A DNA stretch of 53,566 bases from assembly GCA_035533375.1 (NCBI GenBank), contig DATLTV010000013.1:1-53566 (forward strand), in the 5' to 3' direction. The notes below the pieces were generated by a model. It did no database searches, was not told where the DNA came from, and saw nothing but the letters and a program-made list of their open reading frames with translations. Position 1 is the stretch's first letter, and each line of letters opens with the position of its first letter. Shown here one piece after another: positions 5,256-37,190 of this stretch. The stretch comes from Minisyncoccota bacterium. Its GTDB lineage: Bacteria > Patescibacteriota > Minisyncoccia > UBA6257 > 2-01-FULL-56-20. The position numbers were made by a program, and so were the translations under genes.

Positions 5256-7766
5256 CTATGCCATCGGCACGAAATCCACGCCGTCTCCGTTTACGACGAG
5301 CTTCACGCGGCTGCCTTTCGAAACTTTTTTCTGAAGAATCGCCTGAGCCAAAGGCGCCTTGAGTTTTTCTTCGATCACGCGCCGCAACGGCCGCGCGCCG
5401 AACGCCGGATCGTAGCCGAGTTTCGCGAAATAGGCGAGGACCGGCTCATCCACCTGCATTTCGACTCCTTGTCCCTTGAGCGACTCCATCACTTCCTTCA
5501 AATTGATCGCGACGATCTTCGCGAGGTCGCCCGGCGAAAGATTTTTGAAAACGACGACTTTCGAGAAGCGGTTCAGAAGCTCCGGCTTGAACACGTCCGT
5601 GAGTTTTCGTTTTAAATAATCGGAAATCTGCGACATTGATTGCCCCTGGCCCAGGGCGTCGTTGATGATGTCCGAATGTGCGTTCGAGGTCGCGATGATA
5701 ATAGTGTTCGTGAAGTCGACCGTGCGGCCGAGATTATCCGTGAGCCGGCCGTCGTCCAAAACCTGCAGGAATAAATTCAAAATATCCGGGAACGCCTTTT
5801 CGAATTCGTCGAGGAGCACCAGGCTGTACGGCTTCTGTAAAATAGCGTCGGTCAAAGCGCCGTTCACCGAGCCGTCGGGCGAGCCGATGAAGCGGTAGAA
5901 GCTCTGTTTGTCCTGATATTCCGTCATGTCGAATCGCGCCATCATTTTTTCCGAACCGAACTGGATCTCCGCGAGGATCTTCGCGAGCTCGGTCTTGCCG
6001 ACGCCCGTGGGCCCCACAAAAAGGAAGCTCGCGATCGGCCCCTTGCCGCGCGTGAGCCCGCTCCGATATTCGCGGAGCGAATCCGCAATCGCCTTGACCG
6101 CTTCTTCCTGGTCCACGAGCCGCTCGTGGATGACTTCCTCGAGTTTCAAAAGCCGCTCCGCCTCCTCGCCCTCCGCTTCGTGCATGGGTATGTTCACTTT
6201 TGATTCGGCGACGGCGATTACCCGCTCGGGGCCGAGCGTTTTCTCGCCGCGCCGGTCGGCGTCCACGATTGCGGTCTTCAGAAGCTCTTCGGCGCTCGAA
6301 GGAAGGAACTTACCCCGAAAATATTTTTTCGCGAGGACGACCGCTTTCTTGATCGCGCCGAAACTGATTGTCACGCGGAACTGCCGCTCAAGGATCAGAC
6401 TTTCGTAACTCAAAATTTTTTCCGCATCGGCCTCGCTCACTTCGTTCACGCGGATCACCTCGAACGCGCCGGTGAAATCCCCGCGCGGCTCGATATATTG
6501 TTTGAAATCGCGCGGATAGGTGGCGCCGACGATCGGGAAAGCGTTATTCATAATGATGGGCATGAGGGCATCCGCCGCCGAAAGATAAGCGGTGCCGGAG
6601 GTACGCACGAGATTATGGATATTCGGAAGATAGATGATGATATTTCCGGCCACAATGATCTCTTCAACGATCTTTTTGAGCCGCGCGTTCAGCTCCTCGG
6701 GCGGCGCGCCCGCGACAAGGTTTTCGAGCTCGAGCGCGACGAGCCGTTTATCGAAAAGCGCCGGCGGCACGTCATCCTTCTCGAGCTTCTGCGCGAGGTG
6801 TGCGACGATCGCTTCCTTGCCAATGCCCGCTTCGCCCACGAGAAGCGCGTTCGGATTCACGGGCCGCGCCAGGGTTTCGATCAGCCGTTCGAATTCTTCG
6901 TTGTGGCCCACGAGAAACCCGGCCTGGTTCGCGCGCGCGAGATCGGTGAAGTCGGAGGAATACTGGTCGAGCGTGGGCGTAGGTCGCGAGGTCCAGGCGC
7001 GATTCATGATGCGATGGCGCAGGCGCGGGGCGTTCAGAACGAACCCGCCGAGCGTGTTCGGCCGGCGCCCGAAACGCCTGCTCATTGAGCCGAAAATAAG
7101 CGCACGCGCGAGATCGCCGGCCTCAATCGAGAAAATATTGAACAACCGCGCGATGCGCTCGTCGTCCATAAGCGGCATCGCCGAGAACAGGTCGCCGAGT
7201 TCCACGAACTCGTGTCCCGCGTCAGAAGCCTGTACGATCGCCTTTGCGGCGAGCGCTTCGGCCTGCGCCAGATGTTCGTCGGCCGCAACGGCGTCCTTCG
7301 CGCTTTCCGCAAGCAACTCTTCAATTTTTTGCCGGAATTCCTCGGTCTTCACGTCGAGCCGGCGCAATCCTTCCTGGATCCCCGCGAACGCGAGCAATTC
7401 ACGCGCCGTTTCAAGGAGAAAACTCCGTCGCATAACAATGCTGTGATCGAACGATTTCTCGATTGCCGCGAATGTTTTCGGTCTGAGATACTCCGCCGCG
7501 TTCACGCGCCCTTCCCCCGGCATTTCCGAGAGCGGTTTGTCGGCCTCGCCGAGATGTACGATCCGGTCGACAAAAAAGAGAAGCAGCGCGGCTCCTACGG
7601 CTCGCATCCAGGGAAGGTCCGAAAGGAGAAAAGTGACATCGGCCGCGGCGAGCACGAAGTACGTGACATAACGCGCGACGCGCACAAGCGCGCGGCCCGG
7701 CAGGCTCATCCGCAGGCGCGGATCGTCGAAAAAGAATTCTCTGTTGTTAGAATTTTGCTGCGGCAT
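5256..7766 (-). CDS. membrane-anchored Clp/Hsp100-family AAA+ ATPase with degenerate first nucleotide-binding domain
   Basis: 836 aa. There are two N-terminal hydrophobic helices (YVTYFVLAAADVTFLL, AVGAALLLFFVDRIV). NBD2 is canonical (FVGPTGVGKT, LVLLDEFEKA, ATSN, RPLRR). NBD1 has GEAGIGKE and IIYLPNIH in place of GxxGxGKT and hhhhDE. Confidence 0.85.
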   Translation of the reverse strand: MPQQNSNNREFFFDDPRLRMSLPGRALVRVARYVTYFVLAAADVTFLLSDLPWMRAVGAALLLFFVDRIVHLGEADKPLSEMPGEGRVNAAEYLRPKTFAAIEKSFDHSIVMRRSFLLETARELLAFAGIQEGLRRLDVKTEEFRQKIEELLAESAKDAVAADEHLAQAEALAAKAIVQASDAGHEFVELGDLFSAMPLMDDERIARLFNIFSIEAGDLARALIFGSMSRRFGRRPNTLGGFVLNAPRLRHRIMNRAWTSRPTPTLDQYSSDFTDLARANQAGFLVGHNEEFERLIETLARPVNPNALLVGEAGIGKEAIVAHLAQKLEKDDVPPALFDKRLVALELENLVAGAPPEELNARLKKIVEEIIVAGNIIIYLPNIHNLVRTSGTAYLSAADALMPIIMNNAFPIVGATYPRDFKQYIEPRGDFTGAFEVIRVNEVSEADAEKILSYESLILERQFRVTISFGAIKKAVVLAKKYFRGKFLPSSAEELLKTAIVDADRRGEKTLGPERVIAVAESKVNIPMHEAEGEEAERLLKLEEVIHERLVDQEEAVKAIADSLREYRSGLTRGKGPIASFLFVGPTGVGKTELAKILAEIQFGSEKMMARFDMTEYQDKQSFYRFIGSPDGSVNGALTDAILQKPYSLVLLDEFEKAFPDILNLFLQVLDDGRLTDNLGRTVDFTNTIIIATSNAHSDIINDALGQGQSMSQISDYLKRKLTDVFKPELLNRFSKVVVFKNLSPGDLAKIVAINLKEVMESLKGQGVEMQVDEPVLAYFAKLGYDPAFGARPLRRVIEEKLKAPLAQAILQKKVSKGSRVKLVVNGDGVDFVPMA

Positions 7767-20255: not shown

Positions 20256-20277
20256 CCAGAACCCATCTCGGAAACTC
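20256..20277. repeat. solo copy of the terminal-repeat motif of the 24773-25045 element
   Basis: CCAGAACCCATCTCGGAAACTC compared with CCAGAACCCATCTCAGAAATACTC (reverse complement of 25022-25045 plus flank). The first 15 nt are identical. Confidence 0.6.
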
Positions 20278-23788: not shown

Positions 23789-24481
23789 ATGAAAGGGAAA
23801 TCAGTACGGCAGAAAGGCAATAAAACCGTTTTAATCGTGGTGGTTATTATTGTTGCCGCCGTGGCGCTCATTGCCGCCGCCGTTGTATTGAATCCGTCCG
23901 GTCCCAGTCCTGCCGCGCCTGCGTTCGTCGCTACAACCGCTCCCGCGATCACGACATCCGACTGGACCCAGGGCAACGCGAGTGCGAAAGCGACGCTTAT
24001 CGAGTACGGCGATTTCCAGTGCCCGGCATGCGGCGCGTGGTATCCGATCGTAAAACAGCTCTTTGCGAGCGAGAGCAGCAGCATCCTCTTCGTTTTCAGG
24101 AACTATCCACTGTATCAGATTCACCCGGATGCCGGGATTGCCGCGCAGGCTGCGGAGGCCGCCGGACTTCAGGGAAAATATTGGGGAATGTTCGATATGC
24201 TTTATGAGAACCAGAACACCTGGTCGACGGTTGATCCGGCCGCCGTTGTCGCGCAATATTTTAACGGTTACGCGTCTTCGCTCGGCCTCGACGTTTCGAA
24301 GTTCGACAGCGATATCAATTCCGATGGGGTGAAAAACAAGATTAAGAATGACGTCGATGGCGGGAATTCGGCGCAGATCGACCACACGCCGACATTCTTC
24401 GTGAACCTGAAGCAGATCAACCCTCAAAATCCCGGAGATCTGCAGAACGACATCACGCAGGCGCTCCAGGCTTCGCAATAG
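23789..24481 (+). CDS. DsbA-family thiol:disulfide oxidoreductase (membrane anchored)
   Basis: IEYGDFQCPACGAWYP (CPAC) and the HTPTFFVN cis-Pro loop region. Confidence 0.85.
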   Translation: MKGKSVRQKGNKTVLIVVVIIVAAVALIAAAVVLNPSGPSPAAPAFVATTAPAITTSDWTQGNASAKATLIEYGDFQCPACGAWYPIVKQLFASESSSILFVFRNYPLYQIHPDAGIAAQAAEAAGLQGKYWGMFDMLYENQNTWSTVDPAAVVAQYFNGYASSLGLDVSKFDSDINSDGVKNKIKNDVDGGNSAQIDHTPTFFVNLKQINPQNPGDLQNDITQALQASQ

Positions 24482-24500
24482 AATCCGTCTCAAAAAAAGT

Positions 24501-24533
24501 CGCCGTCCGGATTTGCCCGGACGGCGTTTTTTT
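24501..24533. terminator. bidirectional terminator
   Basis: CGCCGTCCGG-ATTTGC-CCGGACGGCG with an A-run before and TTTTTTT after. Confidence 0.6.
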
Positions 24534-24780
24534 ATTGATATGCCCGGAGTTTCTGCGAGAATATGTTCAGATTTTCCGAAAGCGCCGCTTCCGCTTCGGC
24601 CGAGGATGCGTTTTTGCCGTACTGCGTATTCCACAAGGCAATCGATGTTTTGAAGTCATTGAGATCGTGGTTCAGCGCGAGCGTGTTCACCGGCTTCGGG
24701 AGCATGGAGAAGACGGCGAGAAGGATGACGACCGTGATGCCGAGGCCGATCGAGAGAGATTTATAAAATATAGAACCCAT
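24532..24780 (-). CDS. small membrane-anchored protein (82 aa)
   Basis: Trimmed to ATG 24780 (MGSIFYKSLSIGLGITVVILLAVF...). The upstream part of the track ORF is encoded by the inverted-repeat element. Confidence 0.5.
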   Translation of the reverse strand: MGSIFYKSLSIGLGITVVILLAVFSMLPKPVNTLALNHDLNDFKTSIALWNTQYGKNASSAEAEAALSENLNIFSQKLRAYQ

Positions 24781-25045
24781 CTCAGAAATACTCCCGCGGC
24801 CGCGTTGCGAGATGTTTTTGCGAAATGCAAGGCTTGGCGAAGGAGGTGTGCCCATGTGGCACTTCGACTGAGCCGTAACGCAGCATTTCGCAAAAACAGC
24901 CGCAACCCTTCGGGATATGGCCAATTCGGGCAAGGACTTTGTCGCTTCGCCCTCGGCGTATCGCAAGGATACGCCTTCGGACTTACTTCGCGGCCTTGCC
25001 CGAATTTGCCGATATCGCGGCCGGGAGTATTTCTGAGATGGGTTC
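24773..25045. repeat. 273-bp element bounded by 24-nt perfect terminal inverted repeats (MITE-like, candidate invertible segment, or structured RNA)
   Basis: GAACCCATCTCAGAAATACTCCCG (24773-24796) is the exact reverse complement of 25022-25045. Internal perfect stems are TTTTTGCGAAATGC/GCATTTCGCAAAAA and ATTCGGGCAAGG (24924-24935)/CCTTGCCCGAAT (24984-24995). Confidence 0.8.
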
Positions 25046-25276
25046 TGGCATGCCGTTTTTTTCGATTTCAATATTGATCCACTGCGATCTTTCATGAAGC
25101 TAACAAATAAGCCGGCCGCGGTGATGATCGCACGAAGGGCGAACCCCTCTCCGGTTCCTTCACATGATTCTCACCGAAAGAGGAGAAGAGTGACAATATT
25201 CATTAATTAAAAAAGAACCTATCTCAAAAATATCGCTGGTCGGCGGTGCGTTTGTAACAGGTCCTACATTAAAAAC

Positions 25277-32328: not shown

Positions 32329-32344
32329 AAACCGGTCGTCCGAG

Positions 32345-32521
32345 AATCCATCCCAAAAGGAGACGTGCGGATATCGCGGGGGATTTTCGAGCAAAAAAAG
32401 CGAACTGCTCCAAAGGAGTACCTGATGGTACTTCGAGGATCAGTTCGCATTTTGCAGCCATAATGGAGCGAAGCTCCGTCAAATCACCGCGAGAACCGCA
32501 CATCTCTTTTGGGATGGAATT
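32345..32521. other. 177-nt imperfect long inverted repeat / rod-like structured element
   Basis: The outer arms CCATCCCAAAAGGAGACGTGCGG and CCGCACATCTCTTTTGGGATGG pair with 1 bulge and 1 mismatch. Successive inner stems are CGCGG..GATTT/AAATC.CCGCG, GCAAAA/TTTTGC and GCGAACTG/CAGTTCGC. There is a side hairpin GGAGC-GAA-GCTCC. Confidence 0.6.
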
Positions 32522-36431: not shown

Positions 36432-36896
36432 CTACTCCTCCCGCATTTCGCGTCGCGCGGATTTCTCTTTGAGGAATTCCCGCTTGTCGGATTTTTTGCG
36501 CGGTCGGCCGAGTCCGAGTTCGATCTTCACGAGGTTTTTTTTGACGTACGCGCGGAGCGGGATGAGCGAGGATTTTTTCTCTTTCATAAGCCCCGCGATG
36601 CGTTTGATTTCCGCCGTGTGCATAAGAAGCCGGCGCGTATGGCCGGGGTCGTAATCGAGCGGCGAATTTTTCGGTTGATACGCCGGAATCTGTGAATTCA
36701 AAAGCCAGAGCTCGTTTCCCCGGACGAGCGTATGCGCTCCCGAAAGCTGCATCTGTCCGGCTTTCGCGCTTTTCGCCTCGAAGCCGCGGAGCTCGATGCC
36801 CGCTTCGAAAGTTTCCGCGATCTCGTAATCGAACCGCGCGCGGCGGTTCAAAGCGATTGTGTCCGGCGGCTTCTCCATCAGTTCAGTATAAACCAT
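36432..36896 (-). CDS. smpB: SsrA-binding protein
   Basis: TIALNRRARFDYEIAETFEAGIELRGFEAKS...GHTRRLLMH... are SmpB motifs. The start is ATG 36896 or 36878. The track's longer N-terminus is discarded. Confidence 0.9.
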   Translation of the reverse strand: MVYTELMEKPPDTIALNRRARFDYEIAETFEAGIELRGFEAKSAKAGQMQLSGAHTLVRGNELWLLNSQIPAYQPKNSPLDYDPGHTRRLLMHTAEIKRIAGLMKEKKSSLIPLRAYVKKNLVKIELGLGRPRKKSDKREFLKEKSARREMREE

Positions 36897-37190
36897 CACC
36901 GGCCCATTCGTATGAATGAACCGATATATCCGAATCTTTCGTTGCAACGGCGTATAAAAAGAGCCGAAACCAGATGGGGATTTGGCCCATATCGCGCCCC
37001 GTGGTATTTTTGAGATAGGTTCTATAAAAAGTCCGTGACCGCAAAATAAAAGGGCGGTGGCTGGCCCGATTGGTGCGGAAGAGGGGTTCATTCGGAGCCA
37101 CTTGGGGTCTTTCCCTCTTGCGCACGGTAGGATGATCATCGGGATGCCACCGCGTATGAAATAGCATAGGAGGGAATACATGTCATTTTT

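Follow-up and report, generated by a model that had tools for sequence, protein, structure and literature searches.

Several kinds of short repeat that resemble the subject of this report are already known: MITEs (miniature inverted-repeat transposable elements) carrying the ends of IS5-family insertion sequences (ISs), MITE-like repeats whose cruciform is kept by compensatory changes (bcr1), and repeats that bring an ATG to a gene (REP2 and the Borrelia inverted-repeat sequences). Correia elements target TA and carry promoter-like ends. Here we describe a 275-bp element at positions 24,772 to 25,046 of a 53,566-nucleotide contig from a Minisyncoccota bacterium (assembly GCA_035533375.1, contig DATLTV010000013.1; "the window" below means this whole contig), and compare it with these systems.

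Within the IS5 family, members of the IS427 group measure 830-865 bp, produce a 2-bp duplication and encode frameshifted open reading frames (ORFs) (PMC3281130). The bcr1 repeat of the Bacillus cereus group, about 155 bp long and MITE-like, is dispersed at non-conserved sites; its cruciform-like structure, which has been argued to act at the RNA level, is kept by compensatory changes, and the repeat is bounded by 5-bp direct repeats (PMC3184786). The Neisseria REP2 and Borrelia inverted-repeat sequences lie immediately upstream of genes and provide them with a promoter, a ribosome site or an ATG (PMC3184786). The evidence below leads us to conclude that the window element is, with high likelihood, a MITE of the IS5/IS427 type, and neither an invertible switch nor a classical structured RNA.

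Insertion-sequence ends and a dispersed family

The origin of the element is indicated by its ends. The consensus end of the family to which it belongs, AGAACCCATCTCAAAAATACC, agrees at every one of 22 nt with the end of an IS found in a Planctomycetota metagenome-assembled genome (MAG; locus L188, positions 830-1672). That IS is 843 bp long, is bounded by inverted 16-mers and has TA at either flank, its boundaries reading TA/GAACCCATCTCAAAAATACC ... GTTC/TA, and it carries two overlapping ORFs that match DUF4096 (PF13340, 9e-28) and DDE_Tnp_1 (PF01609, 1e-16). Its size, its TA flanks and its overlapping DUF4096 and DDE frames are those of the IS427 group. Because the window element shares its ends with a transposase-encoding IS, we classify it as a MITE; past the 22-nt end, the interiors of the element and of the L188 IS are unrelated, so that the two have only their ends in common and the element is not a simple deletion derivative.

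The same ends are widespread. A second, truncated IS with this end was found in a Vicinamibacterales chromosome (L212), and a scan of a genome contig collection recovered inverted pairs of the 16-mer, 130-270 bp apart, in many phyla, among them Desulfobacterales, Saccharibacteria, Kerfeldbacteria, Colwellbacteria and Betaproteobacteria. Partial copies of the element itself occur in Saccharibacteria and Planctomycetota MAGs. We also observed a full-length homologue of 269 bp with the same Y-shaped fold on a 2.97-Mb contig of a Gammaproteobacteria MAG (CAXXLL010000003.1; L157:6785-7053), and its presence in so distant a phylum implies horizontal spread of the element family.

The window copy is complete, matching the family profile from end to end. 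A repeat search found its terminal inverted repeats to be 25 nt long and 100% complementary, one base longer than the 24-nt perfect repeats proposed in an earlier, sequence-only reading of the locus, with 225 nt between the two arms. That reading had also followed the match to about 30 nt across a 2-nt indel and had described interior stems of 14 and 12 bp in a three-way-junction-like shape. In the predicted RNA fold, the closing helix indeed passes a 2-nt bulge and reaches about 35 bp, both interior stems are longer than was claimed (Table 1), and the whole forms a Y composed of the closing helix and two long hairpins, P2 and P3. The apices of P2 and P3 are homologous to each other in reverse-complemented form, and the left half of the element aligns to the reverse complement of the right half with a score of 36, compared with -4.2 +/- 4.5 for shuffled sequences, in an alignment that extends well past the terminal repeats. 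The element is thus roughly an inverted dimer of a unit of about 135 nt, with one hairpin per unit. Both through-frames encode low-complexity, R/S-rich sequence with no family match.

We aligned 43 full-length copies from 12 genomes, across which the terminal repeats are conserved. Family ends take the form ...TTTTGAGATGGGTTC/TA, and TA is the commonest flanking dinucleotide (17/43 on the left, 24/43 on the right); the window copy itself is flanked by TA on the left and by TG on the right.

The source genome (853 kb in 94 contigs, 54.5% G+C, 86% completeness; the window is its contig C13) contains many further copies. BLAST returned 62 matches to the element, and BLAST together with nhmmer resolved about 12 full-length copies, 69-77% identical to that in the window, plus fragments; with near-full copies counted as well, the genome has at least 12, and identities range over 69-84%. 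Dispersed copies in such numbers had been named beforehand as an outcome that would speak against an invertible switch, and these copies, together with the shared IS ends, bear out the MITE-like insertion that had been listed among the possible interpretations. Several copies sit at contig ends, as repeats break assembly. The copies on contigs C46, C40 and C47 are near-identical in sequence but differ in their flanks, which suggests that some may have moved recently. The terminal 16-mer AGAACCCATCTCAAAA occurs 82 times in the genome with at most 3 mismatches, against 3.8 times in shuffled genomes, and many of these occurrences are solo ends or elements with the same ends and different interiors.

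Among 41 related genomes, this one included, 13 hold between 1 and 13 copies each, and the carriers comprise 11 genera of the same family and, within the order, one further family. When the phylum was sampled evenly, 3 of 401 genomes scored, a figure to be read as a lower bound. The genes flanking copies in different genomes are almost never the same. A dnaG-adjacent site is common to two genera, whose copies there are 64% identical and differ by 14 compensated pairs. At the window locus, flanks in same-genus genomes reach only about 70% identity, and the gene neighbourhood differs. By gene context, 22 copies lie in the sense orientation between tandem genes, 10 in the antisense orientation between tandem genes, 5 between convergent genes and 6 between divergent genes.

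Several other elements related to the family were observed. A second element family with the same ends and another interior (GCAGRCGYGCGGATAT...TTCGAGCGAAAA) is represented at C36:6158-6368 and C45:4099-4307, and by a partial copy within the window at 32343-32437. A third kind, in which the same terminal motif precedes a long hairpin built from short repeats of the CTCATATCTCAAA type, was seen at C5:1247, C77:7698, C94:11248 and C22:~5830-5872, and often begins at a TAG stop. Nested inserts are present in the copies at C40:3089-3394, C81:5460-5780, C63:180-437 and C24:2303-2540; the insert at C40 is a 31-nt perfect palindrome in the P2 loop, and the C81, C63 and C24 copies contain a module of about 48 nt (CACATTCGCTCTACTGAGCTCAGTACTTCCTCGCTCG...) that also occurs, reverse-complemented, in family B. 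At C24:7714-7934, the right half of an element comes straight after a tRNA gene whose anticodon, judged by eye, is GCA (Cys); nhmmer aligned part of this tRNA (GTAACGCAGCGG) to the P2 apex of the element, probably by chance. Further solo or partial family ends lie in the window at 20258-20273 and at 36977-37023, the latter within the ORF at 36432..37181.

The Y-shaped fold and its covariation

The fold of the window copy is far more stable than expected from its composition. A 291-nt stretch folded as RNA on the plus strand has a minimum free energy of -161.6 kcal/mol, compared with -98.5 +/- 5.3 for shuffled sequences (z = -12.0), and the minus strand folds equally well (z = -12.6); with DNA parameters, the minimum free energy is -96.7 kcal/mol (z = -12.4). 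Copy by copy, folding is about as strong on one strand as on the other.

The same Y emerged when RNAalifold was applied to the 43-copy alignment. The consensus structure contains 87 pairs, 74 of which show compensatory double changes, so the covariation among homologues that had been proposed as a check is present; the changes affect 15 of the 18 pairs of the P2 stem (helix 2) and 15 of the 15 pairs of the P3 stem (helix 8). Paired cells make up 93.5% of the alignment's partner positions, as against 77.2 +/- 0.4% when the 3' partners were shuffled and 35-46% when the partners were slid by 1-3 columns, and the covariation score is 0.45, compared with 0.16 for shuffled and 0.07-0.13 for slid partners.

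Near-invariant nucleotides cluster at the junction of the three helices (CGCGTT / AACCC-N4-GGGAT / ATCGCG). In the mini-hairpin located there, the pair 142:150 is kept in all 43 copies and the pair 143:149 in 41 of them, and the alignment columns A133, A134, C135, C136, G141 and G142 are invariant.

An RNA selected on one strand is expected to tolerate G:U pairs but not A:C. The pairing keeps strictly to Watson-Crick rules: across the paired positions of the alignment, we counted 108 G:U cells and 109 A:C cells, and this balance was unaffected by the direction in which neighbouring genes are transcribed (41 G:U and 38 A:C cells in sense copies, 26 and 25 in antisense copies). That G:U is about as frequent as A:C irrespective of transcription direction favours a palindrome maintained at the DNA level and disfavours an RNA read from one strand. 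These data suggest that the Y fold is kept by a constraint, or a process of correction, at work on the palindrome as DNA, and a single-stranded RNA function fits them poorly. The earlier suggestion of a structured RNA is thereby borne out as regards a conserved fold with heavy covariation, but not as regards the pattern of wobble pairs.

Start and stop codons at gene boundaries

Read outward, the end of the element has the sequence ...TTTTGAG ATG GGT TCT; read inward, it begins T/AG AAC CC, the T being supplied by the flank. Since the same end therefore offers an ATG in one direction and a TAG in the other, insertions at gene boundaries can leave a working start or a working stop.

At the window locus, the left repeat was proposed to provide the start and first three codons (MGS) of a small membrane protein, and the right repeat an identical start for a 19-codon ORF. 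Both are there: ATG GGT TCT occupies 24780-24772, and the same nine bases open the 19-codon ORF on the plus strand. The small membrane protein is encoded by an 82-aa ORF with a codon-usage score of 23.2 (true-coding window mean, 18.6), and the identical gene was called in three other assemblies. A homologue search of 5.8 billion proteins returned only the protein itself. The repeat's ATG is the only start codon that retains the membrane helix.

The ATGGGTTCT start without a ribosome-binding site, which had been read from the repeat, was correctly identified, and relatives have bona fide genes that start in the same way; no Shine-Dalgarno sequence can be recognised before the ATG. In genome G001 (L039:~980-2008, contig C15, minus strand), Gmd begins MGSKALITGVTGQDGS, and position 1 of the Pfam profile corresponds to residue 6. 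The native first codons of this GDP-mannose 4,6-dehydratase, which starts MGS-KALITGVTGQDGS, appear to have been replaced. The repeat likewise provides the beginning of a permease in G021, whose residue 4 corresponds to profile position 5. In G002 (L041:2001-4279, contig C5), dnaG is bracketed by two copies and takes its ATG from one and its T/AG from the other; the encoded DnaG has 573 aa and all of its domains (zinc ribbon, DNAG_N and Toprim). We also observed an ABC-transporter ATPase gene, LivG-like by eye, that opens at the element's ATG (L047:2265-2860; G003:C6); its product lacks the Walker A region, its first 70 residues have no Pfam match, and the insertion seems to have truncated the gene.

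At the other reading-frame end, 8 genes of the source genome stop exactly at the T plus AG of the repeat. In relatives, 6 of 46 inbound genes beside copies end in the same way, and other offsets recur at most twice. Insertion at a TA target within a TAA or TAG stop codon, with TAG regenerated, would explain this placement of the repeat at stop codons.

The features of the window locus are collected in Table 1. They include two solo motifs of the family close to the element, the first of which, at the end of a DsbA-like gene, is followed by a bidirectional terminator hairpin.

Table 1. Features at and around the element (positions in the window; a dot marks a feature without strand)
Feature	Position	Strand	Details
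Complete copy, non-coding and Y-shaped, very probably a MITE	24772..25046	.	End-to-end match to the family hidden Markov model; terminal repeats; fold
Left terminal inverted repeat, AGAACCCATCTCAGAAATACTCCCG	24772..24796	+	Reverse complement holds the ATG GGT TCT that starts the 82-aa ORF
Arm P2, hairpin with structured apex	24809..24905	.	16-bp perfect stem, 24813-24828 / 24883-24898
Junction mini-hairpin, CCC-TTC-GGG	24906..24914	.	Within the near-invariant AACCC...GGGAT motif
Arm P3, hairpin	24915..25010	.	17-bp stem with one mismatch, 24919-24935 / 24994-25010
Weak outward promoter-like pair (candidate)	25005..25033	+	Family consensus TTGGCC-17-TATTTT
Right terminal inverted repeat, CGGGAGTATTTCTGAGATGGGTTCT	25022..25046	+	Outward ATG at 25038-25040 opens the 19-codon ORF
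Small one-helix membrane protein, 82-aa ORF	24532..24780	-	Start in the left terminal repeat
Solo terminal-repeat-like motif, AGAATCCGTCTCAAAA	24480..24495	+	DsbA-like gene 23789..24481 takes the AG of its TAG from the motif's first two bases
Solo left-end fragment, AGAACCTATCTCAAAAATAT...	25214..25242	+	48 nt upstream of the 1030-aa surface-protein gene; nhmmer match 25242-25214

Competing explanations and known systems

Taken together, these observations make the element very probably a non-autonomous transposon bearing the terminal inverted repeats of an IS427-type IS of the IS5 family. It would be mobilised by a transposase acting in trans, the DDE enzyme of some full-length IS able to recognise these ends, with insertion presumably at TA. 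Its fold is kept by strictly Watson-Crick compensatory change across copies, genera and phyla, possibly because hairpin or cruciform formation is needed for mobilisation, or possibly by template switching from arm to arm. Insertions at gene boundaries can give the gene alongside a functional stop or start, as several cases show, and in very compact genomes it is such insertions that would survive. At the window locus, the element lies between two diverging genes and lends its ATG to the small membrane-protein ORF.

A number of observations do not sit easily with this account. No match to PF01609 or PF13340 was found in any element-bearing genome, the L188 transposase used as a query had no match in the 41 related genomes, and none of 30 IS5-type loci detected with PF01609 in 400 genomes of the class has the element's ends. 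With no such transposase seen in the host lineage, mobilisation there is an inference. MAGs are incomplete, however, and IS copies often fail to assemble, so a missing transposase is not proof of absence; the copies in this lineage look like orphans, unless an IS that is foreign or escaped assembly serves them. Clean target-site duplications are not the rule, since TA stands at both flanks in only 7 of 43 copies. Scans of metagenomes recovered no empty-site allele, but they found no occupied form of the window site either and so say little on this point. The sense excess between tandem genes is a mild orientation bias, and the long ORFs that run from the outward end number 12, 8 and 3 in the three frames (the ATG frame first), a modest excess. 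Finally, the stems of the window copy are flawless even though its identity to the nearest sampled relative is no more than 75%, a state for which a decaying selfish element needs some maintaining force; either the source lineage is unsampled or the stems are maintained in place.

An alternative is that the copies are former MITEs domesticated as gene-boundary modules, kept by the host and with the fold under selection at each locus. Such a module could possibly serve as a bidirectional transcription barrier or mRNA-end stabiliser combined with a portable stop, a weak outward promoter and a start. In its favour are the near-perfect stems of old, diverged copies and the compensated dnaG-adjacent site common to two genera; no transposase is found in the 41 genomes, essential genes rely on the repeat's ATG or TAG, the promoter-like pair TTGGCC-17-TATTTT is conserved in the consensus, and transcription in either orientation would permit Watson-Crick pairs only, which fits the equality of G:U and A:C. 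The same fold and junction motifs, however, recur in MAGs of unrelated phyla (Gammaproteobacteria and Planctomycetota), which suggests that the fold belongs to the element rather than to the host. Moreover, the copies are patchy in the phylum sample, nearly all of them occupy non-orthologous sites, and their gene contexts are mixed. We therefore consider domestication unlikely. The same doubtful standing applies to a more specific version, in which a MITE has been co-opted as a portable gene-boundary cassette in a family of ultra-small candidate phyla radiation (CPR) bacteria that lacks a matching transposase, with the Y palindrome maintained site by site and the ends giving a stop and a start and perhaps a promoter for a near-leaderless mRNA; were it true, essential genes such as dnaG would need transposon sequence at both ends of their reading frames.

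A structured non-coding RNA, small or cis-regulatory, in which the three-way junction is functional and the inverted ends are simply its closing helix, would account for the compensated pairs, for the near-invariant junction nucleotides, for a folding z-score of about -12 and for the mild sense excess of 22 over 10 between tandem genes. The supposed closing helix is nevertheless identical to the end of a transposase-encoding IS, and elements with other interiors use the same ends; the copies overlap the start or stop codons of genes on either side, both strands fold equally, and G:U pairs are no commoner than A:C whichever strand is transcribed. A search of Rfam gave nothing on the element at the gathering threshold or at E-values up to 10. 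An RNA of this kind is accordingly improbable.

Two further candidates were tried and rejected. The 16-mer, which sits at stops ahead of hairpins, could have been a DNA-uptake sequence or a terminator signal, but it is the end of a transposase-bearing IS. An in-frame insertion of the kind represented by the Rickettsia RPEs was set aside as the through-frame of the 187-aa ORF is junk.

The promoter-like pair noted at the right boundary, TTTGCC-17 nt-TATTTC, exists (25005-25010 / 25028-25033), but each of its hexamers agrees with the promoter consensus at 3 of 6 positions and a promoter scan did not report it. If the family consensus TTGGCC-17-TATTTT-TGAG-ATG were active, it would, speculatively, place the transcription start close to the ATG. 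As for orientation, the locus is complete in two other assemblies, both of which match the window at 100% identity and are arranged in the same way, although assemblies hide minority forms, and a third, short contig crosses the left repeat boundary in the same orientation. A Logan contig of SRR8554501 (L240), corresponding to window positions 24401-24871, breaks off 100 nt into the element, close to the P2 apex and not at a repeat boundary, which is probably a repeat or coverage break. The absence of a recombinase from the window was confirmed, the only Resolvase and Phage_integrase matches in the genome being on contigs C19 and C62.

An invertible segment, which by flipping between the 25-nt repeats would direct a promoter either to the small membrane-protein gene or to the 1030-aa surface-protein gene, can draw on the perfect inverted repeats around 225 bp between diverging genes, one of them for a large surface protein, on the weak pair at the right edge, and on the one serine (C19) and one tyrosine (C62) recombinase of the genome, but it is the least credible explanation, as the repeats are the ends of a transposon and recur at dozens of sites whatever the gene context, neither recombinase is encoded on this 53.6-kb contig, every assembly agrees on a single orientation, and the promoter pair falls below the scan threshold.

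Read as an IS5/IS427-type MITE, the element has several implications. It belongs to a MITE family that persists in at least 11 genera of reduced-genome bacteria without a visible transposase, and its ends would make gene-boundary insertions survivable, which is relevant where intergenic space is minimal. Annotation would do well to treat the element as a repeat and mask it, and it explains MGS... starts without a ribosome-binding site as well as TAG stops. The covariation of a DNA three-way palindrome is easily mistaken for that of an RNA, and the symmetry of G:U and A:C provides a cheap discriminator between the two.

The literature that we searched yielded no paper describing MITEs from CPR bacteria. 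What stands out beside the known kinds is the orphan status of the element across a CPR family, a Y fold kept at the DNA level across phyla, and the donation of starts and stops to essential genes. Like the MITEs of the IS427 group (IS1248, ISPaes1 and others; PMC3281130), the family shares a 22-nt end with an IS and is small, non-coding and multi-copy with TA-rich flanks; unlike them, it has an interior unrelated to that of the L188 IS, no partner IS seen in the host lineage, and the conserved form of a Y-shaped inverted dimer. With bcr1 it has in common the dispersed, MITE-like distribution and a fold kept by compensatory changes, but it lacks the RNA-type tolerance of G:U, and its ends match an IS of the IS5 type. 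From REP2, the Borrelia repeats and the Correia elements it differs in its unrelated sequence, in bringing an ATG without a Shine-Dalgarno sequence, and in that the same end also gives a TAG.

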